Shown: positions 3,537-23,185 of the stretch, in pieces
Position numbering within the stretch: position 1 is the first letter of the stretch
Layout: each line of letters begins with the position of its first letter
Assembly (NCBI GenBank): GCA_020058975.1
Contig: JAGVDA010000013.1
Location: 1-24,000 of the forward strand
Origin: Thermosynechococcus sp. WC_1
Lineage (GTDB): Bacteria; Cyanobacteriota; Cyanobacteriia; Thermosynechococcales; Thermosynechococcaceae
DNA: 24,000 nucleotides
Direction: 5' to 3'
The notes under the pieces: generated by a model
Databases searched by the model: none
Told to the model about the DNA's origin: nothing
The model's input: the letters and a program-made list of their open reading frames with translations, nothing else
Program-made: the position numbers and the translations under genes

Positions 3537-3543
3537 TAAATTT

Positions 3544-3604: not shown

Positions 3605-3877
3605 TTAAATTTCAAAACTATCCGCCCAATTTTCCAAAGAATGATTTGCTGCCTCGTGAGCCGCATTTGCAACGGAATAGCAATAGTCGCAAATATCAAA
3701 ATACGCATCATCAGCACCGCGACAGTACGGCTGCTCCTTGCCGCAAACATCGCACAAAAATGTCTGGCCAGGGACGCAAGAATAAGCTTGCTCAGGCTTG
3801 CACCAGCAATTCATCGGCTTAAGACTTAGCGCGGCTCGGAAATTTTGGGTTATGTTCCAAAGTTGTTTGTTTTTCAT
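3605..3877 (-). CDS. Cys-rich small protein (90 aa), zinc-ribbon-like
   Basis: Track ORF 3605..3922 trimmed to the ATG at 3877 (MKNKQLW...), which forms an ATGA overlap with the methyltransferase stop. Multiple Cys pairs (CWC, CDVCG, CDYC). Confidence 0.55.
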   Translation of the reverse strand: MKNKQLWNITQNFRAALSLKPMNCWCKPEQAYSCVPGQTFLCDVCGKEQPYCRGADDAYFDICDYCYSVANAAHEAANHSLENWADSFEI

Positions 3878-4713
3878 TTTTCTTCCCTGCAATTTGCCGT
3901 CACTAAAACCTCGCCAACACACCCTCTACCGTCTGACTTAGAGTTAATATTACGCCGCGCAGAAATACTATGAATTGCCCACTGATCGTACATTTCGCGA
4001 ACAAACGAATGATCGGAGTTAGATAGTGCGACAGGAACACCTTGTGAATCTAGAAACCCAAATAATTGCCTCAAAGAAACTTGGTCGCCCCCCGTAAATC
4101 CATCTCTCGTGTAACTCGTAAAGTCACTAGTTTTGCTAACAGATTGATAAGGGGGATCAAGATAAACAAAATCTTGATCTTTTAAATCATGCTTAGGAAA
4201 ATCTTTAAAATTTCTACAAACAATTTCTGCATCTTGCAAAGCAAGTGAAGCCGCCTTTATTCCCTCCTTATCAACGGACCACGGCGTTTTAGAAGAACCG
4301 ATTGGCACATTAAACTGGCCAGATTTATTTTCCCTATGCAATCCATTAAAACAGGTTTTATTGAGATATATAAACCGTGCAGCCCTCTCAATATCGGTCA
4401 AGAGCTGGAGTGATTGCCCCCTTACCTGGTAATAATAAGCTTGCGAATGCAAATGCTGATGACCGTGCAATCTTTGAATCAGACGATCGCAGGCATCGCG
4501 CACCTGAACATAAGCATTTATCAGCTCAGCGTTACTATCACTAAGAACTGCGCGTTCTGGCTGTAGCCGAAAAAACATTGCGCCACCGCCTAAGAATGGT
4601 TCGTAGTAGGTGCCCATAATTTTTGCAGGAATGTGCGGAATTATTTGAGGCAAAAGACCCGTTTTGCCACCAGCCCATTTAAGAAATGGTTTTGACAAAT
4701 TCAATGCAATCAT
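3874..4713 (-). CDS. Dam-type (D12 class) N6-adenine DNA methyltransferase, orphan (no adjacent endonuclease recognised)
   Basis: Motifs FLKWAGGK, YYEPFLGGGAMFF and DPPY. Start moved to ATG 4713 (MIALNLSKPFLKW), which forms an ATGA overlap with the upstream 60-aa ORF. Confidence 0.85.
   Translation of the reverse strand: MIALNLSKPFLKWAGGKTGLLPQIIPHIPAKIMGTYYEPFLGGGAMFFRLQPERAVLSDSNAELINAYVQVRDACDRLIQRLHGHQHLHSQAYYYQVRGQSLQLLTDIERAARFIYLNKTCFNGLHRENKSGQFNVPIGSSKTPWSVDKEGIKAASLALQDAEIVCRNFKDFPKHDLKDQDFVYLDPPYQSVSKTSDFTSYTRDGFTGGDQVSLRQLFGFLDSQGVPVALSNSDHSFVREMYDQWAIHSISARRNINSKSDGRGCVGEVLVTANCREEK
3883..3906 (-). repeat. 24-nt upstream cassette copy 2 (minus strand TTAGTGACGGCAAATTGCAGGGAA), ends 5 nt before ATG 3877 and lies inside the 3' end of the methyltransferase CDS
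   Basis: 23/24 identical to 3544-3567. Here it encodes the methyltransferase C-terminal residues LVTANCRE. Confidence 0.6.
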
Positions 4714-4892
4714 AATTTTTGCCCCATCGCCCAACCCACAACAAAAGCCGCTTGAAATAATGATAAAGAAAAAAACAGAAAAAACAAATTCCTATGGCTC
4801 CGAATCTTTGTTCCCAAAACTTGCATTGCCAGCAAAAAAGATACAAACGCTTCCAAAGCCCCAAGCGAATACAACCAAAATTCCCGCTGCAC
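4710..4892 (-). CDS. small two-TM membrane protein (60 aa)
   Basis: Track ORF. GTG start is preceded by GGAGGA at 6-nt spacing and lies 2 nt after the stop of the upstream ORF. Its stop overlaps the methyltransferase start (ATGA). Two hydrophobic stretches. Confidence 0.5.
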   Translation of the reverse strand: MQREFWLYSLGALEAFVSFLLAMQVLGTKIRSHRNLFFLFFSLSLFQAAFVVGWAMGQKL

Positions 4893-7363: not shown

Positions 7364-7737
7364 GCAGAAATCCCAAAATATTTTTCAACTACGGCGATCG
7401 CCTCATCCGCCCCCTTGCAAACCACGGCAAGAAAGCCTTGCCCATTTAGGTCTGCAATCCATTTTCTTTGGACAGGAGTAGGTTGGCCCTTTGCGGACTT
7501 CATCTCAATCCACAGCCCATGATAGCCGCCAATGGCAACAGGGATACAGACATCGGGAATTCCAGACTTGACCCCCTCGTTTTTTAATTTTCGGGCCACT
7601 CCAATATGGCGATGGCCACCGTTTGGGATAGCAAAAGCGAGAGAAAGGCGATCGTCCTGGAGGGAAGCAAGCTCTAGCCAGTCGAAAAAAGCAACTTGTT
7701 CGTCGTGCTCAGATTGGTTCAAGCTCTTTCCCTCCAA
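7360..7737 (-). CDS. VRR-NUC domain nuclease (PD-(D/E)xK fold)
   Basis: SEHDEQVAFFDWL...AIPNGG...GIPDVCIPV...LWIEMKSAKGQPTPVQRKWIADL...VVCKG matches the VRR-NUC pattern (E, PD, ExK). Confidence 0.8.
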   Translation of the reverse strand: MEGKSLNQSEHDEQVAFFDWLELASLQDDRLSLAFAIPNGGHRHIGVARKLKNEGVKSGIPDVCIPVAIGGYHGLWIEMKSAKGQPTPVQRKWIADLNGQGFLAVVCKGADEAIAVVEKYFGISA

Positions 7738-9578
7738 GCACCAATAGAAGTAGGAGGATTAATGTTTTCAAATTTCGTATTTTCAGCATCAAATAGAAGC
7801 TTTACCATTCCAGTTGGACCATTACGATGCTTAACAATTGACACTTCAGTGACACCTCTATTTGGCGTATCTTTAATATAGTAGTCTTCCCGATAGAGCA
7901 TCATAATCATGTCAGCATCCTGCTCAATAGCACCAGACTCTCGAAGATCTGACATGATTGGTCGCTTGTCTCTACGAGACTCTACACCCCTAGAAAGCTG
8001 AGAAAGGGCAATTATTGGAACATTAAACTCTCTTGCCAAAGCCTTAAGGCCACGACTAATTTTGGATATTTCAGTATTACGATTTTCCGAACTTCCATTG
8101 CACTTCATAAGCTGAAGGTAATCAATCCCAATCATAGAAATGCTACCTTTCCTCTCAATAACCTCACTCGTCTTTGCGTGGATATCTTCAATCGTCAAAA
8201 CTGGATTATCATCAATCCCAATTTCAACCTCACTAAGAGCCGCTGTCGCAAGATTAACCGCATCCCACTCATGGCTTGAAATCCTTCCAGTTCTAAGGCG
8301 CTGGCTAGAAATTCGCGATTCCATTGAAAGAAGTCTATAGTTTAATTGAGGAGCAGACATTTCCAGACTAAATACTAGGCAAGGCTTTTTGTAAGTTTCT
8401 GCTATATTCCTAGTGATACATAAAGCCAGAGCGGTTTTACCCATTGATGGACGCGCGGCCAAAACAATTAGGTCGGAAGGTTGAAACCCTTGGGTCATTG
8501 CATCAAGTTCATAAAAACCTGATTGATAGCCTGGAAGAGTTTTAGACTCGGACCTAGATGTAATTTGATCGTAAATTGAAAGACTTAGGTCCGACAAAAA
8601 TACCATTGAGGATGGAGGTGGTGGCGTCAAAGCATCTATCAATTTATCAAGAGTTTTGCCTCGAACACCATACTCAGTACCAACTTCCTGCTCAAGCAAA
8701 GTTCGCTGAAAGAGGTCTAACTCAGCTTCAACCTGCTCAACTTTTTTCCTTAGATCTGTTGCTGATTTTTTGGGTTTTCCCTCGTTGGTTTCTATTGCCC
8801 CTAAGATATCTTCAACCGTTGCCCCGTCTTGGATCCAATCTTCTATATCTAATCCGCCTTGGTCTGGAACGCAGGACCAAATTGGGGACTTAGGGTACAC
8901 CTTCAAAAGCTTTGCGGATGGGAAAAGCTTTTGGACATCATCCATATGCTCTAAGCCAGGTTTGTCTCTGTCTGGGCATAGAATTAGATCGGCCCCGCTC
9001 AAGTCCGCCTTGTAACCCTTCCCAAAGCTATGAAGCTTCTTTGATCCGCCAAGAAAAGTTGTTGAGGCTATGCCAATTGTCCAAAGTGCGTCTGCGGAGG
9101 TTTCCCCCTCAACAACAATAATTTGTTGTTTATTCGCGATCGCCTCTCTCACCTCTGCATATCGATAGATAGGAATTACAGGCTTTATTTTGTCAGGAAC
9201 ACCTGAGACCCAGCCATCACCTTCCCAGTGGTATTGGTAGAACTGCTTTTGAGATCCTTGTTTGACCTTCTCAACCTTTAAGAGTTTAGTGCCATCACGA
9301 TTTGGGTAAAAGAACTGTGATCGGGTTTCTCCAGCCCGTAATTTTCGCCCCTTAAGCTGACCCTTCTCCCCTCTTAGATCATTAACAAAGACGCCCCATA
9401 GCCCATCCTTGCTCGTTGCATGAAACCTATAACCATTGATCGGATTTTTAGGGTCGGTAGGGTGAGTGTGGCAAAAAACGAGGTTACCTTGTTCCTTCAC
9501 TCGGCAGTCTTGGTCAGAAATGCGATCGCAGACAGGACAAGGATTATTCTTCCCTGAACGAGTAAATCTATCCATCAT
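7719..9578 (-). CDS. bifunctional primase/helicase: zinc-binding N-terminus, Toprim primase domain, DnaB-like helicase C-terminal domain
   Basis: CPVCD...CHTH zinc motif. Toprim VVEGETSADAL and CPDRDKPG. DnaB-type Walker A ARPSMGKTALAL, Walker B IGIDYLQLM, and ALSQLSRGVESR. Start trimmed to MMDRF (ATG 9578 or 9575) directly behind GGAGG. The track's 41-codon extension reads through the IscB element end. Confidence 0.85.
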   Translation of the reverse strand: MMDRFTRSGKNNPCPVCDRISDQDCRVKEQGNLVFCHTHPTDPKNPINGYRFHATSKDGLWGVFVNDLRGEKGQLKGRKLRAGETRSQFFYPNRDGTKLLKVEKVKQGSQKQFYQYHWEGDGWVSGVPDKIKPVIPIYRYAEVREAIANKQQIIVVEGETSADALWTIGIASTTFLGGSKKLHSFGKGYKADLSGADLILCPDRDKPGLEHMDDVQKLFPSAKLLKVYPKSPIWSCVPDQGGLDIEDWIQDGATVEDILGAIETNEGKPKKSATDLRKKVEQVEAELDLFQRTLLEQEVGTEYGVRGKTLDKLIDALTPPPPSSMVFLSDLSLSIYDQITSRSESKTLPGYQSGFYELDAMTQGFQPSDLIVLAARPSMGKTALALCITRNIAETYKKPCLVFSLEMSAPQLNYRLLSMESRISSQRLRTGRISSHEWDAVNLATAALSEVEIGIDDNPVLTIEDIHAKTSEVIERKGSISMIGIDYLQLMKCNGSSENRNTEISKISRGLKALAREFNVPIIALSQLSRGVESRRDKRPIMSDLRESGAIEQDADMIMMLYREDYYIKDTPNRGVTEVSIVKHRNGPTGMVKLLFDAENTKFENINPPTSIGAWRERA

Positions 9579-9655
9579 TTCCTCCGAGGGACTCCCGCCA
9601 GAGTCGTAATCGACTTGGCGGAGAGGGGGATAGGAGCGGCGCATTAGCGCCAATG

Positions 9656-10933
9656 TCAAAGTGCATATCCGTAGCCATCCTTTTTGTGAATGAGAGTGCA
9701 ATATTTATAGGAAATCGAATCAATTAATCCAGTCTTATCTGAGATATTGAAACTACCAACCGACCGAACAGCAACCCGACCGAGATAAGTCCCGATCTTC
9801 TTGCCTTTAGTCACAATCGCCCGAACAATATCTCCGGTTTGAAAACCTTTAACAAATGGATTCTTTGGCACATACCGAGATGGGAATCCATACTTATCAG
9901 TCCGACATTGTTGCCTTGAGCCGTGCCCCGTGGCCTTGATTTTGAGTGGTTGACTTGTTAGTACCTCCAAGCTTTCAACATCACCGACACAGGCAGCATC
10001 AAGCCAATGGGCTTTAGGCAGTCCTAGTCGAGTTCGGTTGAACTTGGTTTGTCCCCCTGACCCAGTAGAAACCGGAAGGCCCGTTTCTTTGAGTCGATTG
10101 AACAATGTCCAACGAGTCGAGTTGACTGCCGCTGCATCTTTGAGAGGTCTTTTTGCTTGTGCCTGAATCTGTTTGAGTAGGTCAGGGTTTTTGCCCAAGA
10201 ATTGAGCAATATCCTGAGTGCCTTTCTTTAGATTGCAAGGTTCACAAGCTAGGCATAGATTAGAAATCCGATTAGACCCACCCTTAGACTTCGGGTGAAT
10301 GTGTTCGATCTGAAGTGGGACATTTTCAACCTTGCAATAGGTGCATTGTCGATTCCACTTATTGAGCAAATATTCACGCACTTCGTAGCCCGCTAACTCA
10401 CCTTGTTGGTACTCAGTGCCTGATATCTCAGGGTTTTCAATCTGTTGCAAATCAAACCGAACAAGCTCTTGAGCAATGGAACCAATCGGACACAGTTTAA
10501 TGAACCGATTTACCCAGGTCATCGTGGTTTCAACCCGATGGGCTAGGCTTGGAGCCAGCCAACCTTCAGGTCTTGCTCGGTTGAGGAACCGCGCCGGACG
10601 ATGCCGAGTATGTCGATTCCGTCTACCGCGCCGCAGGGCACGACGGGATTCCAGGGACCGTTTGATGGCTGCGCCACGGTGAGTTAGTTCAGCACCAAAA
10701 ATAACTTGATTGCCTTGTAAGATGGCAAAGCCAGTCGTTTTTGAGCCTGGGTCTATTTTGAGAGTGCAAGGCTCAACCGGACCGTTGACCTCCTTTTTGA
10801 GGATGATTGTTCTGGGATATTCACGAAAAACAGCAGCTTTCCCAGTATCACAAAGCCGATCGGCTACGGATGATTTGCAGGGAGCCAATCGCCTTCGGTT
10901 TGTATCTAGAACGAGAATATAGTTAGTAGACAT
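9656..10933 (-). CDS. iscB: IscB RNA-guided nuclease (RuvC-HNH, Cas9 ancestor family), apparently intact
   Basis: N-terminal LVLDTNRRRLAPC (PLMP-like). RuvC-I KIDPGSKTTGFAI. Arg-rich bridge RRALRRGRRNRHTRHRPARF. RuvC-II IAQELVRFD. HNH CTYC...QIEHIHPKSKGGSNRISNLCLACEPCN. RuvC-III HWLDAAC. Start set at ATG 10933 (MSTNY); the track begins at an upstream TTG. Confidence 0.85.
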   Translation of the reverse strand: MSTNYILVLDTNRRRLAPCKSSVADRLCDTGKAAVFREYPRTIILKKEVNGPVEPCTLKIDPGSKTTGFAILQGNQVIFGAELTHRGAAIKRSLESRRALRRGRRNRHTRHRPARFLNRARPEGWLAPSLAHRVETTMTWVNRFIKLCPIGSIAQELVRFDLQQIENPEISGTEYQQGELAGYEVREYLLNKWNRQCTYCKVENVPLQIEHIHPKSKGGSNRISNLCLACEPCNLKKGTQDIAQFLGKNPDLLKQIQAQAKRPLKDAAAVNSTRWTLFNRLKETGLPVSTGSGGQTKFNRTRLGLPKAHWLDAACVGDVESLEVLTSQPLKIKATGHGSRQQCRTDKYGFPSRYVPKNPFVKGFQTGDIVRAIVTKGKKIGTYLGRVAVRSVGSFNISDKTGLIDSISYKYCTLIHKKDGYGYAL

Positions 10934-11201
10934 TGTGGTGTCTAAACTCCTTACGGTTAACGTTTGCTTCAAGATTGTTATCGGTCGGTACTATCCAAAA
11001 CACACTGTCTTAACCCAATTAAAACTGTTTAATGATTTGGTTACAGAGCCTAGGACTAGCGAGATACAAGGGTATCAATCCTAGGGTGTGAACTTTAACG
11101 CTTACCGATAACGGCTGCTAGACCTCTCTAGCTCTCTGGTCAACTTCGGGCTTTTTAAGCCCCCGCTATATCGGTATTCCGATTAGCGGTGGGTTATTGA
11201 C
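10934..11201 (-). ncRNA. candidate omegaRNA scaffold of the IscB element
   Basis: 268 nt with no ORF, immediately 5' of iscB and reaching the element's left end. Hairpins read by eye at 11163-11189, 11148-11162 and 11049-11085. Location matches published IscB loci. No covariance model or expression data available. Confidence 0.5.
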
Positions 11202-11347: not shown

Positions 11348-12331
11348 TCAGGCTGCTGCATAATCTGGCTGCAAACCTCGTAAGAAAATCAGGTACTCAG
11401 CTTGCTCTTGAAATGTTAGGTCTGAGATAACACGAGCCCCAGAGGGGACATTGAACCCAGCCACAATAACGCCATTCAACTTAAGCCTGTTTATCTGCTC
11501 AACCAAACCCTTGTTAATAGCCTCTGGGCTTTCTGCTTCAGCCTTGAACCGTTGCCATTGGGCCAAAGAAATGTCTAATCTTTCTGGGCTAAATTCTGCT
11601 CTTGCTAACCAATCTTCAGCCTGCCACCTTTCGGGAGGGGTCTCTTTGAAGCTTGGAGTACTAGGCAGATACTTTTCCACAAGAAAAGCAATAAACCCTT
11701 TATCAAAATCTCTCCGCCTTGATGTGATTTGCCACGGGTGGAGCTTTCCTTGGTTCTTGAACATGGCTTCGATTTTTTCTGGGCCAGACAATCCCCCCTT
11801 AAAAGAAAAATTATCCGTGTTGCTTGAGTAAAGAGTTTGTTCTTTATTTGAATATAGATCTGAAGAAGAGTTGAGAGGAGCCTGAAAGTCAATCCCTGTG
11901 CTTGTTTCGGGCATTGATTTTCGCAAATCTGGGACTGGCGTTTCACTAAGTGCATTCTCAGTCCCACTAAGTGGGATTTTAGTTTCGTTTAGTGGGACAG
12001 GATCTTCAGTAAGTGGAACACCATCACCACCAGGTGGGACTGAAAATGATGAGGGAACATTGCGGGTTTTTACATCTACGGCCCCGATTATTTTTTCATC
12101 AAGCAAATCTTGCTCAATTAGTTTTGCCTTCGCCCTGTAGAATGCCGAACGGCTCAATCCCCATTCTTGACAAAAATCATCAACTTTTTCAATCCGGTGG
12201 ACCCAGCCATGCTGTTTAAGGGAGGAAAGCAGCAAAAACAGGTATCCCGATGGTCTTAGATGGCCTGACTCAAAAAGAAATCTAACCTGGTCAGGAGCAA
12301 GACGAACGTGAGAAGTTTCACCCTTTTTCAT
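11348..12331 (-). CDS. putative replication initiator / wHTH DNA-binding protein (327 aa) with internal heptad-repeat linker
   Basis: N-terminal HTH (FCQEWGLSRSAFYRAKAKLIEQDLL). Central VPxxxxx heptads are encoded by 21-bp DNA repeats. Sits next to the primase-helicase. Initiator function is inferred, not recognised by homology. Confidence 0.55.
   Translation of the reverse strand: MKKGETSHVRLAPDQVRFLFESGHLRPSGYLFLLLSSLKQHGWVHRIEKVDDFCQEWGLSRSAFYRAKAKLIEQDLLDEKIIGAVDVKTRNVPSSFSVPPGGDGVPLTEDPVPLNETKIPLSGTENALSETPVPDLRKSMPETSTGIDFQAPLNSSSDLYSNKEQTLYSSNTDNFSFKGGLSGPEKIEAMFKNQGKLHPWQITSRRRDFDKGFIAFLVEKYLPSTPSFKETPPERWQAEDWLARAEFSPERLDISLAQWQRFKAEAESPEAINKGLVEQINRLKLNGVIVAGFNVPSGARVISDLTFQEQAEYLIFLRGLQPDYAAA
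11928..12040. repeat. six 21-bp-phased direct repeats (core AGTGGGAC, plus strand), iteron candidates inside the initiator-like CDS
   Basis: Cores start at 11928 TCTGGGAC, 11949 AGTGCATT, 11970 AGTGGGAT, 11991 AGTGGGAC, 12012 AGTGGAAC and 12033 GGTGGGAC, with exactly 21-nt spacing. Confidence 0.6.
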
Positions 12332-12419: not shown

Positions 12420-12653
12420 CTCCGAGAGACCCCTGGCTTTAGACATGGGGGGGGATAGGAGCGGCGCATTAGCGCCAATGTCAAAGTGCATATCCGTAGC
12501 CATCCTTTTTGTTGACAAGAGTGCAGTATTTATAGCTAATGCCCTGAATTAATCCAGTTTTGTCGGAGATATTAAAACTACCTGTCAAGCGGACAGCAAC
12601 CCGTCCAATATAGGTGCCAATTTTCTTGCCTTTAGTAGCGGTGGGTTATTGAC
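12420..12653 (-). mobile_element. internally deleted (MITE-like) derivative of a diverged IscB element: right-end hairpin module, the last ~60 codons of iscB, and 17 nt of the left end
   Basis: 12450-12512 is 63/63 identical to 9625-9687. 12513-12636 is 95/124 identical to 9688-9811. 12637-12653 is identical to 11185-11201. The remnant frame still reads TKGKKIGTYIGRVAVRLTGSFNISDKTGLIQGISYKYCTLVNKKDGYGYAL*. Confidence 0.7.
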
Positions 12654-12665
12654 CGATCATGCACA

Positions 12666-12956
12666 TTACGCAGTACCTCCTAGTGGAGTTAAGGTGGGCC
12701 ACAATGCCCAGTGAGTAACGCCAACGGCATTGATCTCGCTATAGTCTCCAATTGATAGCCCATTTGCAAAATCAGCTAATACCCAACCATTTTCGGCAAA
12801 AGAGTATCGAAGAGCTTTTGAAAAAACCTGTCCATCTACAACGCAAAGACATTGTGCAGAGTACCTAGTGCCGTAATATGGATCATTATTGACGGGGGGC
12901 AACCCGTTAGCGCAAAGAGCAAAAATGAGGGTCACCGGATTGAATAAACTAGACAT
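12666..12956 (-). CDS. hypothetical protein (96 aa)
   Basis: Track ORF. 1-nt start/stop overlap with the upstream ORF. Confidence 0.5.
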   Translation of the reverse strand: MSSLFNPVTLIFALCANGLPPVNNDPYYGTRYSAQCLCVVDGQVFSKALRYSFAENGWVLADFANGLSIGDYSEINAVGVTHWALWPTLTPLGGTA

Positions 12957-13294
12957 TAGCCCTCCTCCCCAAAATACGAGTCCAACGCTGCTAAAGCTTC
13001 GTCAGTCGCCATGTCCATGCCAAGGCGCTGGCATTGCTGGACGAATGAAAACCGATCGCATGTCTCAATGTCTTTCCATGCCCATCCAGTACGAGAATCT
13101 AAGTCTAAATCTAAATCTAGATATTGAATTCGGCCTTGGTCTAGCTTTGGCTTGCTAGAGATCTTGACTGATGCCAAGAATCTAAGCGCATCGGCAATGT
13201 TTTCGGCTTTCGTCGATCGGGACAGCCAGACGGTACGGAGTTGGAGTTTTGTTGCAGTAAGCATAACTTTCGTCTCAAAAATTGCCTCACCCAA
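12956..13294 (-). CDS. hypothetical protein (112 aa) containing an LDLDLDLD run
   Basis: Track ORF. Hexanucleotide repeat at 13098-13121. Confidence 0.5.
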   Translation of the reverse strand: MGEAIFETKVMLTATKLQLRTVWLSRSTKAENIADALRFLASVKISSKPKLDQGRIQYLDLDLDLDSRTGWAWKDIETCDRFSFVQQCQRLGMDMATDEALAALDSYFGEEG

Positions 13295-15128: not shown

Positions 15129-15514
15129 TACCGGAACCCCTCAAAACGATCGGCCAAAGCTAGCCATTTTGTTGAGATCGCCCAGCGGACGTATGCGATC
15201 GCAGCCTGCTCTTTGGTGGCATATAATCCGTCATCTTGAGGGAGGCGCGATCGCCATCCCCAATTGCCATCAATTTTTCGGATTTCTCCGACGGCCACTT
15301 TTTTGCCGTTTTTCGTAAGAAAAACGTCTTGGGTCGTCACATTCTGTTCTTCTATGAGGACAGTCTCGTCCCCTACGCAATCCAGTAGCAAGGACTGAAA
15401 AGGCCCTAACCTAGGAATCCTTGAGTTAGCCTTTTGGAAATCAGGCTTTTCCAAAGATGAGTATTTATAACTCAGCTCTGATGTTTTTTGGGGTATAGTT
15501 GCGGAAAACAACAT
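15128..15514 (-). CDS. hypothetical protein (128 aa)
   Basis: Track ORF. First gene after the Ner-like regulator. Confidence 0.5.
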   Translation of the reverse strand: MLFSATIPQKTSELSYKYSSLEKPDFQKANSRIPRLGPFQSLLLDCVGDETVLIEEQNVTTQDVFLTKNGKKVAVGEIRKIDGNWGWRSRLPQDDGLYATKEQAAIAYVRWAISTKWLALADRFEGFR

Positions 15515-15643
15515 ATTGCTGTATACCTACAAAGGTGAACATTTGAGAAATGGTTGCAACAAGAGCAATCATCTTGGGGGAATTTCCATAGCAAAGCTGG
15601 CCTTAAGAAAGACTTGTTATGCTATAGAAGGTGGGGGAATTGT

Positions 15644-15853
15644 TTAGGCCGCTACAGAATCAAGCCTAGGTAATGGCTCACCGTAAAGATCCATATACGT
15701 TTGGGCAACAGTATCAACGATCCTTTGTGAATTTTCTTGCTCTTTAAGAGCCTGAGTGACGGCACTCTGAGTTACCTGAAGGCTTCGAGACAAGGAAGCA
15801 AGGCTCGTCCCCTTTTTTCGCAAATTACACTTAATGACTTCAATGTCGTACAT
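15644..15853 (-). CDS. Ner/Nlp-like HTH regulator (69 aa)
   Basis: IKCNLRKKGTSLASLSRSLQVTQSAVTQALKE resembles the Mu Ner / Nlp family HTH. Divergent from an XRE-type gene. Confidence 0.65.
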   Translation of the reverse strand: MYDIEVIKCNLRKKGTSLASLSRSLQVTQSAVTQALKEQENSQRIVDTVAQTYMDLYGEPLPRLDSVAA

Positions 15854-15865
15854 CTGTTAACCTGA

Positions 15866-15919
15866 GCCTTAAACTATTTAGGCTAAATCAAATCTAATCC
15901 ATTTTTCGTAGACTGTCAA
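15866..15919 (-). promoter_or_regulatory. candidate promoter (TTGACA-17-TAGATT, minus strand) with an imperfect 18-bp inverted repeat just downstream
   Basis: -35 at 15914-15919 and -10 at 15891-15896 (17-nt spacer counted). Inverted repeat GCCTTAAAC/TATTTAGGC at 15866-15883. Confidence 0.45.
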
Positions 15920-15940
15920 CACTTTTGGGAATAAAGTTTT

Positions 15941-16381
15941 ATGAACCCCGCGATCGCCATAGCAACTAAAGGTTTGCCTACGGATTGTCCCTGGTTACCC
16001 CCGTACCCTCAGATTGGTGCTCGCTTTCGCAGCGCACAAGGAGATCGGCCAGACTTGAAGATGGCTAAGATAATCGGAGTATCGCCGACTACGATTTCTC
16101 GTGTCTGTAAGGGAGAGCAAGGGATTAATGATGCAATGCTTGGCTATTACTGCGCGGTTGAAGGCCACGACGCCCACGGGCTTCTTTTTGGGCATGGCTT
16201 TGAACAACCTCCTGAGACACTTGCAACCTTGCTTCCTAAATTACTGGATCTTCCAACGTCGGACAGGCTGGCCGTGCTGGCGGCTGTTGCAAACAGCGTT
16301 CAAGGTGGATGCCCGTGTACTGATTCTCCAACTCCGTCTTCAGTCTCTCAACAATCCTATTCAGCTCCTGACAATAACTAG
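15941..16381 (+). CDS. XRE-type HTH protein (146 aa), repressor candidate
   Basis: MAKIIGVSPTTISRVCKGEQGIN HTH. Divergent from the Ner-like gene. Its 3' third overlaps a minus-strand ORF in antisense. Confidence 0.6.
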   Translation: MNPAIAIATKGLPTDCPWLPPYPQIGARFRSAQGDRPDLKMAKIIGVSPTTISRVCKGEQGINDAMLGYYCAVEGHDAHGLLFGHGFEQPPETLATLLPKLLDLPTSDRLAVLAAVANSVQGGCPCTDSPTPSSVSQQSYSAPDNN

Positions 16382-16625: not shown

Positions 16626-16934
16626 ATGGAAACAATAGGGGGAATCTTTCTCCGAGTACGGGCTGAACATGGGCTCAGTCAAAAAGTGATCGCTGCTGAA
16701 CTAGGGATATCTGTTTCCTACGTCTCCCATTTGGAAAGTGGAAAATTTTTGTCAATTAGCGATGAATTGCTCCAAAAATTTTCAGCAAGGTTTGGGCTCC
16801 ACTCAGATGAGCTGAACTTTGCTTGCGATCGTATGCCTCAGTGGATGTGGGATGCGATTATGTCAGATCCTAGGTTATTTCGAGATTTGTGCAGGATGGA
16901 TAGGAAAAAGTTGGAGGCATTTTTGGCAACGTGA
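16626..16934 (+). CDS. XRE-family HTH transcriptional regulator (102 aa)
   Basis: LRVRAEHGLSQKVIAAELGISVSYVSHLESGK is a canonical HTH_3 pattern. Confidence 0.8.
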   Translation: METIGGIFLRVRAEHGLSQKVIAAELGISVSYVSHLESGKFLSISDELLQKFSARFGLHSDELNFACDRMPQWMWDAIMSDPRLFRDLCRMDRKKLEAFLAT

Positions 16935-18061
16935 AATTTACTACTACCCAATCTGCCCTAGCGGCAAAGCTCACACAACTTTTTAAACTGGTCCCAAGCA
17001 ACCCCAGTCACCCAGTCTTAGGCAATATACTCCTCGTGGCCGAAGACGATCGCATCTCCCTATCCGCGTTCGATCTTTCTATTGGCATCCAAACGTGGAT
17101 AGAAGCAACCGTAACAGAGCCTGGAGCCATCACAATTCCAGCAAGGCTCTTAACAGAGATCGTGTCACGCTTGCCCAATCAAGACGTGACCATAGAAAAC
17201 GATGGGCTTGCTATTGAGCTAACCTGCGGAACGGGTAAGTATAAGATGCAAGGGCATCCAGCCCTTGCATTCCCAGCGCTACCAACACTAGAAGATCTTG
17301 AAGGAATTGAGGTTGAGTGCGATCGCCTCCAACATGCCATCCAGCAAACATTGTTTGCGGCGTCTACGGACGAGAGTAAACAAATTCTCACCGGAGCGCA
17401 AATTCTTTTTAGTCCAGATGGCCTGCGGTTGAATGCTACGGATGGGCACAGACTTGTAGTCTATAAAGAGGCGCTTGCCATTGATACGGAGCCATTCTCG
17501 GTCGTCATCCCAGCTAGAGCCTTGCGGGAGTTGTTGAAGGTTCTATCAAAAGGGAGTGCGGTTTTGGTTAAGTGCGATCGGGCTGGCAGTAACCAGATCT
17601 CTTTTGAGGTCGCCGGAGAGAATGGGGCGGAGTGCCTAACCTGTCGAGTTTTGGATGGAACGTACCCCGCAGTAGATCAACTGCTGCCAAAAGCATTTAC
17701 CCGCCAGTTGACAGTCTCAAGGGCTGAACTGTTGTTAGCCATTGACCGAATTTCAGTGTTGGCTGCGCGGAAGAATAATCTTGTCAAGATGGAGATTGGA
17801 AAGGAAAATCTTTTGGGGCGATCGTTGTTTCTCTCGGCAGATGTTGATGAAGGTAGCGGCTCTGAAGAACTGACCTGTCAGTTTACGGGGGAAGAGACTG
17901 CGATCGCATTTAACGGTAAGTATTTGGCCGATGGGCTGAAGAGTCTTGGCTGTGGTGAGGTTATTATTTCTATGAATGAGCCTGCGCAGCCCGTTGTGAT
18001 TGCCCCTGTAAGTGGAGATGATTGGCAGTATTTGGTCATGCCGATTCAGGTGCGATCGTGA
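16931..18061 (+). CDS. dnaN: DNA polymerase III beta subunit (sliding clamp) homolog, element-encoded
   Basis: 376 aa. MKFTTTQSALAAKLTQLFKLVPSNPSHPVLGNILLVAEDDRISLSAFDLSIGIQ...ITIPARLLTEIVSRLP is the typical DnaN N-terminus. Length is correct. GTGA overlap with the XRE gene. Confidence 0.9.
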   Translation: MKFTTTQSALAAKLTQLFKLVPSNPSHPVLGNILLVAEDDRISLSAFDLSIGIQTWIEATVTEPGAITIPARLLTEIVSRLPNQDVTIENDGLAIELTCGTGKYKMQGHPALAFPALPTLEDLEGIEVECDRLQHAIQQTLFAASTDESKQILTGAQILFSPDGLRLNATDGHRLVVYKEALAIDTEPFSVVIPARALRELLKVLSKGSAVLVKCDRAGSNQISFEVAGENGAECLTCRVLDGTYPAVDQLLPKAFTRQLTVSRAELLLAIDRISVLAARKNNLVKMEIGKENLLGRSLFLSADVDEGSGSEELTCQFTGEETAIAFNGKYLADGLKSLGCGEVIISMNEPAQPVVIAPVSGDDWQYLVMPIQVRS

Positions 18062-18999: not shown

Positions 19000-19069
19000 G
19001 AAGGAGTGGTTCAACAAAAAAGATTTCCTGTGAAAGACGTTAAAATCATTGATTTTTCAAAGAAATTCT

Positions 19070-21586: not shown

Positions 21587-21874
21587 ATGAACGGATTAGG
21601 ACCAATTAACTTTTTTGTTTTCCAATGGTTTTTTGTGCGGAGAGTTCGTGAGCGCATTCCACTCATCGAAAAATATAGTGAGTGCATAGATTCAGACTCA
21701 GCTTTGCATAGCGCGAATGAATATATGAGGCTCATTCAACAGGCAGACGATCGCCCTGCTCAAGTGAAGTATCCGCCAGACTTGTATGATCTGCTTAATG
21801 TTGGGTTTTATGAATATCGATGGGTCAAGGCGTGGCCTTTGACTGGGTGGATTGGACGAATTAGAACTTTTTAG
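21587..21874 (+). CDS. hypothetical protein (95 aa)
   Basis: Track ORF. AAGGGGGAAA upstream of the ATG. Confidence 0.5.
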   Translation: MNGLGPINFFVFQWFFVRRVRERIPLIEKYSECIDSDSALHSANEYMRLIQQADDRPAQVKYPPDLYDLLNVGFYEYRWVKAWPLTGWIGRIRTF

Positions 21875-21884
21875 AGGAATCAAA

Positions 21885-22244
21885 ATGTCAGTAAATTCAA
21901 TTAGTCTTGTTGGTCGAGTTGGTGGGGATGTAGAAATGCGCTATTTCGAGAGTGGTAGCTGTGTCGCCAACTGTACGATCGCGGTGGAAAGCGGACAGAA
22001 GAACCCCGATGGATCTAAGGGTGCGCCTTTTTGGTTCAACCTAGAAATGTGGGCAAAGACGGCTGAGATTGCAGCGCAGTATGTCAAAAAAGGTGGACTC
22101 ATTGGAGTAACAGGGGCACTGAAGTTTGATCATTGGACAGATAAGACAACGGGTGAAGCGCGAAGTAAGCCCGTTATCCGAGTAAATCAGCTTAATCTAT
22201 TGGGCAGTAAGAACGATAATCAGCAGCCACGGGAGGAATTTTGA
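21885..22244 (+). CDS. ssb: single-stranded DNA-binding protein paralog lacking the canonical acidic C-terminal tip (119 aa)
   Basis: MSVNSISLVGRVGGDVEMRYFESGSCVANCTIAV...FWFNLEMWAKTAEIAAQYVKKGGLIGVTGALKFDHW is an OB-fold SSB pattern. Ends ...QQPREEF. AGAGGAA SD. Confidence 0.8.
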   Translation: MSVNSISLVGRVGGDVEMRYFESGSCVANCTIAVESGQKNPDGSKGAPFWFNLEMWAKTAEIAAQYVKKGGLIGVTGALKFDHWTDKTTGEARSKPVIRVNQLNLLGSKNDNQQPREEF

Positions 22245-22247
22245 TCC

Positions 22248-22697
22248 ATGAATAACGCAGTAATCCAAGGCACGATCGCTACACAACCCGAACTCAATAC
22301 TACAAATACTCAAAAACAATTGGCTACATTCACCCTATCATTCCCTGCATTAAAGGATGGGGATGCGACAGAAACGATCGCGGCGATCACCTGGGGAGAA
22401 CTAGCAACGACTGTGATGAAGTATCGTGAAGGCCAAAGCGTGATTGCTGAAGGTCGAATAGCAATCAAGAAAGTTGATAGGGATAATGGTGTCAAAGCCA
22501 CAGTAGTTGAATTTATTCTCGGTCGAGTGCATTTTATTGGAAATGCTGAAGCTCCTGCATTTACTCCTGTTGCTTCAGTACCCAAAGCGCCTTCTGTAGA
22601 TCCTACGCCAGTTACACCAGTGGGAGCGATCGCATCTAAAGCAGCTCCTGAAATCCCAGCAGATTATGAACCAAATTATGACGATATTCCTTTTTAG
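22248..22697 (+). CDS. ssb: single-stranded DNA-binding protein paralog with Pro/Ala-rich linker and canonical DDIPF tip (149 aa)
   Basis: MNNAVIQGTIATQPEL... OB-fold pattern. C-terminus is YDDIPF. Confidence 0.75.
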   Translation: MNNAVIQGTIATQPELNTTNTQKQLATFTLSFPALKDGDATETIAAITWGELATTVMKYREGQSVIAEGRIAIKKVDRDNGVKATVVEFILGRVHFIGNAEAPAFTPVASVPKAPSVDPTPVTPVGAIASKAAPEIPADYEPNYDDIPF

Positions 22698-22705
22698 CAA
22701 AGATC

Positions 22706-23185
22706 ATGACAACGCAACTCCTTCCCAGCCCAAAAAGTAGCGCAGAACATGCGCAAGCATTTGCCAGCCTTCACAAAACGATCGCATCTTTCACAAAAGC
22801 CAACAAGGGCGAGATGGGCCGTGGGTTTGCCTACAACGAGGTTCCCAGCGCAGACCTGTTTTTTGTACCACTGTCGGAATTTGAAGAGGCTGGGCCGGAA
22901 ATGATTGGCATCAACAATGATTTATATGCGCAGCTTGTTGACCTGCTGAGGACTTACAACATCGATCAGGAATACGTTTCAGTCATCAAGATAATCCAGG
23001 GCGATGTAACTCGGTTCATCACTCAAACAGGGTCGCTAGACGAGGACGCATGGCAAGAAATTATCTCCGAAGAGGAGATAAAGCGACGGGATGCGATCGC
23101 ACTCAAGGCAAGAGCCGCCGCACATCTTGAAAAACTGCGATCGGGTAGGGCAAAAAAGAAGGGGAAAGCAGCCAAGTCAAGGTAG
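22706..23185 (+). CDS. hypothetical protein (159 aa) with Lys-rich tail
   Basis: Track ORF. Confidence 0.5.
   Translation: MTTQLLPSPKSSAEHAQAFASLHKTIASFTKANKGEMGRGFAYNEVPSADLFFVPLSEFEEAGPEMIGINNDLYAQLVDLLRTYNIDQEYVSVIKIIQGDVTRFITQTGSLDEDAWQEIISEEEIKRRDAIALKARAAAHLEKLRSGRAKKKGKAAKSR

Follow-up and report, generated by a model that had tools for sequence, protein, structure and literature searches.

The stretch of DNA which we have analysed (the window) covers the first 24,000 nucleotides (nt) of contig JAGVDA010000013.1 of the cyanobacterium Thermosynechococcus sp. WC_1. It contains a gene for a protein of 327 amino acids which has, inside its coding sequence, an array of repeats with a period of 21 nt. 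The protein is probably the replication initiator of the mobile element to which this DNA belongs, with the origin of replication within its own coding sequence, as it is the case for gene O of phage lambda. Such a lambda-like intragenic origin had been proposed in an initial annotation of the window, and all its predictions which can be tested on sequences agree with our results: the periodicity of the repeats, the conservation of third codon positions, the presence of a predicted winged helix-turn-helix domain and the matches to phage protein families in PHROGs. The features of the gene are the following, with positions numbered along the window:

11348–12331 (−): initiator-like gene, an open reading frame (ORF) of 327 amino acids with a predicted N-terminal winged helix, repeat linker and helical C-terminal half
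12062–12310 (−): predicted winged helix-turn-helix DNA-binding domain, amino acids 8–90 (AlphaFold2, Foldseek, family conservation)
11894–12058 (−): iteron-like array of seven to eight units (sequence, periodicity statistics)
12040–12020, 12019–11999, 11998–11978, 11977–11957, 11956–11936 and 11935–11915 (−): units of the array
12058–12041 and 11914–11894 (−): degenerate units which flank the array, one on each side
11797–11880 (−): AT-rich tract, candidate DNA-unwinding element, 68.8–70% A+T, which follows the array immediately as the gene is transcribed
11856–11862: CAGATCT, conserved in the family and placed within the AT-rich tract (AGATCT at 11856–11861)
11673–11681 (+): DnaA box TTTTCCACA, the only perfect box of the window, inside the initiator-like gene and some 120 bp past the AT-rich tract
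11348–11749 (−): helical C-terminal half, amino acids ~195–327, AlphaFold2 helices with a predicted local distance difference test (pLDDT) of 55–65; proposed helicase-recruiting domain

The repeats had been described as six octamers on the + strand with an invariant spacing of 21 nt. Both their positions and their spacing are correct:

11928 (+): TCTGGGAC, two mismatches to AGTGGGAC
11949 (+): AGTGCATT, three mismatches
11970 (+): AGTGGGAT, one mismatch
11991 (+): AGTGGGAC, no mismatch
12012 (+): AGTGGAAC, one mismatch
12033 (+): GGTGGGAC, one mismatch

When the coding (−) strand is considered, the array is formed by 21-nt units which start at a Val or Ile codon and have the core consensus RTCCCACTWAGTGRRAC. 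Their sequences are GTCCCACCTGGTGGTGATGGT; GTTCCACTTACTGAAGATCCT; GTCCCACTAAACGAAACTAAA; ATCCCACTTAGTGGGACTGAG; AATGCACTTAGTGAAACGCCA; GTCCCAGATTTGCGAAAATCA, and the six units are translated as VPPGGDG VPLTEDP VPLNETK IPLSGTE NALSETP VPDLRKS. The VPxxxxx heptad linker of the initial annotation is confirmed: the units encode VPLxxxx heptads (amino acids 92–146), placed between the predicted winged helix and the C-terminal half of the protein. The best dyad in the array is GTCCCACTAAGTGGGAT, found at 11961–11977 of the + strand, where it overlaps units 11977–11957 and 11956–11936.

Tandem Repeats Finder does not report this array in the window because its units are too degenerate, and lag statistics were used in its place. 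The self-identity of the array at a lag of 21 nt is 0.51–0.54, compared with a mean of 0.27 (standard deviation 0.048) in the window, and it is above the value of any lag between 6 and 60 nt across the whole 24 kb. None of 600 shuffled sequences (300 by mononucleotides and 300 by triplets) matches its periodicity; the largest value found in them is 0.514. It is the sole array with at least three copies in the window. The identity of the units at the DNA level is also higher than the peptide repeat alone would yield.

The segment which codes for the linker shows a peculiar pattern of conservation. In 11 pairs of homologs from several clades, the identity of the middle ~80 codons is flat over the three codon positions (about 0.6–0.9), while in the flanking domains the second position is more conserved than the first one, and this one much more than the third. 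In 10 of the 11 pairs, third positions in this middle region, which takes in the repeats and the AT-rich segment, have a higher identity than those elsewhere in the gene (P between 2e-8 and 0.04). Lambdoid O genes were taken as a positive control, but it is uninformative, as the available pairs differ in the specificity of their origins or are almost the same sequence. When the window is compared with its close homologs L002 and L006, 66–76% of the identical residues in the repeat region have the same codon, versus 38–44% in the N-terminal domain. All 16 Pro codons in the core units of the three close homologs are CCA, for a usage of 40%, while the Val and Ile codons mostly end in C, although the preferred ones are GTT and ATT. 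The flat profile indicates that selection acts on nucleotides. The initial annotation had considered that homologs might keep the peptide repeat while the periodicity of the DNA decays, which would speak against an origin; we find that homologs keep the DNA periodicity and that their synonymous sites are constrained. The array is an unusually clean case of a protein-coding stretch which doubles as an array of DNA sites.

These data bear on three other explanations of the repeats. The first one is that they are merely a flexible peptide linker generated by slippage, so that the periodicity of the DNA would be a by-product with no function. It is true that the segment, which contains many P, S, T and E residues, is predicted to be disordered, and that the number of copies varies between close relatives. 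However, its third positions are better conserved than those of the folded domains, the flat codon-position profile contradicts this explanation and the choice of codons is fixed against the usual usage. Furthermore the peptides are very diverse and yet their period is 7 or 14 residues in 54 of the 56 family proteins with clear repeats, whereas a free linker should also give periods of 5, 6, 8 and 9. We regard it as highly improbable. A constraint on RNA is also very unlikely, either as a structure of the mRNA or as an antisense or regulatory RNA over the linker-coding segment, comparable to those of antisense-controlled rep genes. Flat codon-position conservation fits DNA and RNA alike, the dyad cores could form hairpins and the region folds slightly better than shuffled sequences (z = −2.45; 3 out of 200 shuffles fold equally well). 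But most units of the window cannot form a hairpin, since the right arm is degenerate in them (as in GTCCCAC...ACGAAAC), no Rfam family matches at the array, and the strict 21-nt phasing, the short dyads and the conserved GT...AC edges are typical of protein sites on B-DNA. Finally, synonymous sites might be constrained by an overlapping gene in another frame or strand, since mechanical ORFs cover the array at 11898–12140 (+), 12013–12219 (+) and 11605–11967 (−). No alternative frame is open across the segment throughout the family, and in several loci all of them are closed within 150 nt or less. The probability of an overlapping gene is negligible and we have rejected it, as no alternative reading frame is conserved.

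The gene belongs to a family of proteins which are all annotated as hypothetical, most of them with about 300 amino acids. With a profile search, 247 relatives were recovered among 1.8 billion representative proteins; 98 of them have E <= 1e-10. The family has no Pfam or NCBIfam model and no sequence match above threshold in the PDB; our search of the literature did not find any description of it. At the BLAST level none of the INPHARED phages encodes the domain. Scanning viral and genome contigs with only the three close homologs gave nothing, while a scan with the N-terminal family alignment gave 21 further members on cyanobacterial genome contigs. Six long proteins (P0005, P0016, P0022, P0114, P0116 and P0122, with 871–2575 amino acids) match the family profile only through its segment of heptad repeats; these matches are probably due to low complexity and unrelated to the family.

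Conservation within the family is highest in the N-terminal domain, which has the pattern H.RLT..EV...W..G.YT..GYLYHL....R..GW..RI.NV..FC..W.I.RRTFYRAKA.LI..G.LEE.I.G, in which FYRAKAxLI is nearly invariant. This domain is followed by tandem peptide repeats which are widely different in each case, such as HPVQDAA, HIENSGA, LNSESQA, DRSVSTP, EPLTNLA or DDAQSFT, and then by a conserved S/T-x-D-L motif. A period of 21 nt is the best lag in the ten DNA loci with a lag identity of at least 0.6, and it is found again in three held-out loci. Two clusters of metagenomic homologs, L002 and L006, are close to the protein in the window; they have in common with it the 90 N-terminal residues and the repeats, while the C-terminal half is not shared. 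Their DNA units are of the type RTCCCACTAAGTGARAC..., and in L002 the 21-nt array is detected by Tandem Repeats Finder. L002 represents a phage-like module for recombination and replication; one close homolog lies on a 26-kb phage-like contig with RecT, an exonuclease, VRR-NUC and NblA.

Clear arrays are also present in plasmids. In pLBA of L. boryana there are 7.8 copies of a 21-nt repeat which are 100% identical. Plasmid4 of Scytonema sp. NIES-4073 has 5.9 copies of 21 nt with a perfect palindrome of 7-bp arms. Nostoc pTCL26-01_G has 3.8 copies of a 21/42-nt repeat in a family gene which overlaps dnaB; this is a 29-kb plasmid with no annotated Rep and with its own ParA/ribbon-helix-helix (RHH) partition pair. 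Scytonema plasmid4 has no annotated Rep either; a ParA-like gene and a CopG gene are found elsewhere in it, and its family gene (22214–23101 of the record) lies between two genes for Tn3-family transposases. A different repeat is found in Nostoc pTCL26-01_G at 9512–9946, with 5.6 copies of 66 nt, 98% identity and an 11-nt subrepeat TTCCGAAACGA. It lies some 1 kb downstream from dnaB, where it overlaps a small annotated coding sequence, and may be a centromere or a competing origin of this plasmid.

The AT-rich tract comes next. The initial annotation had estimated about 69% A+T for 11801–11880; we have measured 68.8%, which is in the top ~1% of all 80-nt windows. It is not the maximum of the stretch, as 78.7% is reached at 3537 and 77.5% at 19014. 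In most family genes the AT maximum sits at the equivalent relative place, downstream of the arrays. The tract of the window contains CAGATCT, a sequence which in 21 loci is enriched ~40-fold downstream of the arrays and which is found once per gene in all three held-out loci. It is coded as (S/T/P)-D-L: the residue before Asp varies, and every time its codon ends in CA. CAGATCT contains GATC, and the window codes for a D12 (Dam-type) adenine methylase at 3874–4734. The order of features in the window is iterons, AT-rich tract and DnaA box. Sites similar to DnaA boxes show no overall enrichment in the window. In 24 family loci there are four perfect DnaA boxes at nt 456–651 of the gene, versus one in 190 kb of flanks, a comparison across loci which was made post hoc.

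The predicted structure of the protein has three parts. AlphaFold2 gives a pLDDT of 80–87 for amino acids 8–90, with the topology H-H-beta-H-H-wing. The repeat segment is predicted to be disordered (pLDDT about 30), as part of a disordered region which spans amino acids 91–208. In the PDB the best Foldseek matches of the N-terminal domain are generic GntR-type winged helix domains (probability 0.98, target-normalised template modelling score 0.61, E = 0.3); none of the matches has E <= 0.001. A comparison of the N-terminal profile with the sequences of solved structures gave nothing significant. The protein of the window itself has no match in Pfam, NCBIfam or PHROGs, while some family members have weak Pfam matches to HTH_36 and HTH_29. 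A scan of 84 members against PHROGs matched eight families, six of which are replication-initiation or helicase-loader families (31 of the 34 member matches); none is a terminase or a partition family. The best match has E = 1.6e-8 and involves the winged-helix segment; the families matched include a DnaD-like loader, a "replication initiation protein" and O-like ones.

These results have to be confronted with the possibility that the array contains sites for the same winged-helix protein but has another function in cis: autoregulation by roadblock, a role limited to plasmid incompatibility or copy control, a centromere for partition, or a pac site in a gene similar to those of small terminases. 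Small terminases also have N-terminal helix-turn-helix (HTH) domains and intragenic pac sites. The nucleotide constraint, the phasing and the dyad cores indicate an array of protein sites on DNA but do not tell its purpose, and GC skew leaves the array unmarked. On the other hand, the PHROGs matches point to replication, the family gene overlaps dnaB in Nostoc pTCL26-01_G, and the AT-rich tract, CAGATCT and the DnaA boxes are features of the type found in origins. A pac site does not fit with the neighbours of the gene, which are replication genes: there is no terminase gene nearby and no terminase match in Pfam or PHROGs. Neither does a centromere, since both small plasmids with a family gene have separate ParA and RHH/CopG pairs elsewhere, and in the window there is no ParA gene beside the initiator-like gene. 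Another function in cis is therefore unlikely.

If the array is part of an origin, we infer from the sequence how it might work: the protein would bind the array, melt the DNA next to it and recruit the helicase. The N-terminal winged helix, probably as a dimer, would bind the imperfectly dyad-symmetric RTCCCACTWAGTGRRAC cores of six to eight units. As a spacing of 21 bp corresponds to two helical turns, all the bound proteins would be on one face of the DNA. The nucleoprotein complex would then strain and open the AT-rich tract 11797–11880 with its CAGATCT, with the DnaA box placed beyond it. The C-terminal half, by analogy with lambda O and P22 gp18, would recruit the primase-DnaB helicase of the element, and its clamp and single-stranded DNA-binding proteins (SSBs), together with the polymerase of the host, would complete the replisome. 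Since the array is translated, its units can only have lengths divisible by 3, and among these 21 is the first which corresponds to whole turns of 10.5 bp, which would explain the period of seven codons found throughout the family.

Several observations weigh against an intragenic origin of this kind. The units of the window are degenerate, only about two of them are near the consensus and Tandem Repeats Finder misses them. Of 145 family proteins only 56 have clear repeats, and the arrays of several loci are weak. The dyad GTNNC-N6-GNNAC (16 bp) recurs in 21-nt steps, with 37 matches distributed over 14 of 22 loci and 0.09 per kb in the flanks, but this pattern was picked post hoc and it is missing from the three held-out loci, where TGTCCAC-N4-GTGGACA is found instead. 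A generic test for dyad symmetry in the unit consensus is significant in only 2 of 18 loci. Imperfect dyads are all that we claim, with no universal motif or palindrome. The presumed recognition helix is nearly invariant although the interiors of the iterons vary, which is explained only in part by the conserved GT...AC edges. Structural homology had been suggested by the initial annotation as a check: the winged helix-turn-helix fold is predicted, but hhalign of family profiles against lambda O gives a probability of 0.1–0.2, which is not significant, and Phage_rep_O (PF04492) matches neither the protein of the window nor any of 30 N-terminal domains (E <= 1). Most genomic family loci have no helicase gene downstream; in the window an IscB element interrupts the adjacency with the primase-helicase. 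Nostoc pTCL26-01_G holds a second large array, which is possibly its real origin. Finally, the cumulative GC skew of the window, which could have marked the origin, has its minimum at 15–16 kb and not at 11.9 kb. This minimum coincides with a switch to divergent transcription, so that in the window skew follows the orientation of genes. In Nostoc pTCL26-01_G the minimum is 300 bp from the array but also at a point of divergence, and the Scytonema plasmid is ambiguous; GC skew is uninformative in our judgement.

A version of the same idea which we consider unlikely is that the family does not derive from lambda O. It would be a replicon module of about 1 kb with dual coding, evolved independently and widespread in plasmids and prophages of cyanobacteria, in which the period is locked at 21 bp by the triplet reading frame together with the helical repeat of 10.5 bp, while CAGATCT makes the opening of DNA sensitive to the Dam-type methylases which elements and hosts encode. 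As part of this version, a cassette with initiator and origin, bracketed by IscB copies, might be movable as a unit.

The surroundings of the gene contain the following features:

7719–9701 (−): fusion of a primase-like N-terminus with a helicase of the DnaB type (DnaB_C of Pfam at residues 391–646, E = 6.7e-100), the presumed client of the initiator
9625–11201 (−): complete IscB/omega-RNA (HEARO) insertion element, not part of the origin
9656–10972 (−): IscB nuclease (Pfam RRXRR and HNH)
10957–11201 (−): omega RNA (Rfam HEARO, 110.5 bits)
12448–12653 (−): internally deleted copy of the same IscB element, ~205 bp, upstream of the initiator-like gene
15514–15941: divergent-transcription switch, with HTH regulators nearby (16626–16934 is an HTH_3 protein)

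The initiator-like gene had been described as adjoining the primase-helicase. This is not correct, as a 1.6-kb IscB/omega-RNA insertion element lies between them; if it is discounted, the primase-DnaB is the next gene. In matching Nostoc plasmids iscB is annotated. The deleted copy contains the first 18 nt of the omega RNA fused to iscB codons 388–438 and the right-end hairpin, and it is 84.5% identical to the 3' end of the full element (9625–9811). With two copies in the same orientation, one on each side, the gene with its putative origin is bracketed by IscB sequences. Pfam supports the statement that the element has its own clamp (16931–18061) and SSBs (21852–22244 and 22248–22697). Genes are all leftward between ~2 and 15.5 kb and rightward from 15.9 kb onwards, with HTH regulators at the switch. 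By analogy with lambda, the initiator-like gene is in an early leftward operon, at the place which O holds there. An ORF at 12956–13294 contains a 6-nt repeat, AATCTA, four times (13096–13119), which encodes a DLDLDLD stretch.

For the plasmids and phages of cyanobacteria, known replication origins and initiators are very few. On the basis of the sequences compared here, this previously unannotated family, present throughout cyanobacteria, is very probably one of initiators with an intragenic origin; the mechanism would be that of lambda, which leaves the textbook picture unchanged. If it is confirmed, a function would be given to roughly 250 sequence clusters, and filamentous cyanobacteria would offer a place to try a compact cassette of ~1 kb, with initiator and origin, as a vector replicon.

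A comparison with known systems may start with the theta plasmids which contain iterons (pSC101, F, P1, R6K, RK2). They have phased direct repeats of ~17–22 bp by an AT-rich unwinding region and DnaA boxes, and their initiators, of the Rep_3/RepA type, use winged-helix domains. However their iterons are outside rep and there are two winged-helix domains, whereas in the window the array is intragenic and a single winged helix is predicted. Rep_3 matches neither the protein of the window nor other family members. A likeness is also found in PHROGs families phrog_186, 428, 270, 345 and 678, DnaD-like or related to phage replication initiation: the winged-helix segment of the family aligns to their winged-helix part. 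Each of them is matched by at most 12 of the 84 members, and the C-terminal halves do not match except in a few members. As replication proteins of cyanobacterial plasmids, CyRepA and CyRepX of Synechocystis have also been considered; they are large proteins with helicase-related DEXDc domains and no iterons have been reported for them (PMC10899382). They are a different, unrelated family, and tblastn with family members does not find any Synechocystis plasmid.

The closest parallel is with phage lambda, whose origin, with iterons and an AT-rich tract, lies in the middle of gene O (PMC7466680). The description of this layout in the initial annotation is correct according to that reference and to the GenBank record, in which four 18-bp iterons are found at codons ~117–145 of O with spacings of 20, 24 and 23 bp; two extra iterons in O add 13 residues to the protein (PMC7466680). 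The gene of the window shares with lambda O and lambdoid genes (gene 18 of P22, Shiga toxin (Stx) phages) an N-terminal DNA-binding domain, predicted in our case, an intragenic array at codons ~100–145, iterons translated as a linker and an AT-rich tract directly downstream. In lambda a gene for a helicase or its loader comes next, in an early operon beside a divergent regulatory region; in the window the primase-DnaB gene comes next only if the IscB insertion is set aside, and most genomic family loci have no helicase gene there. There are also differences. The spacing is strictly 21 bp in the window, in contrast with the variable one of lambda. The partner of O is a P-type loader of the DnaB of the host, while in the window it is presumably a primase-DnaB fusion encoded by the element itself. 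The cyanobacterial family is also set apart from lambda O by the conserved CAGATCT in its AT-rich tract and by its hosts. A few family members match O-like PHROGs weakly. Repeats of the type LPESGKK are found in the O protein of PhiR26_1. The O homolog of Escherichia phage PHB10 (L041, 667–739) has an array of 3.5 copies of 21 nt, CCGAAAACGGGAAAAGTCTTC, at codons ~123–146, which is translated as xPKxGKx heptads; it demonstrates that intragenic arrays phased at 21 bp already exist in the true O family.

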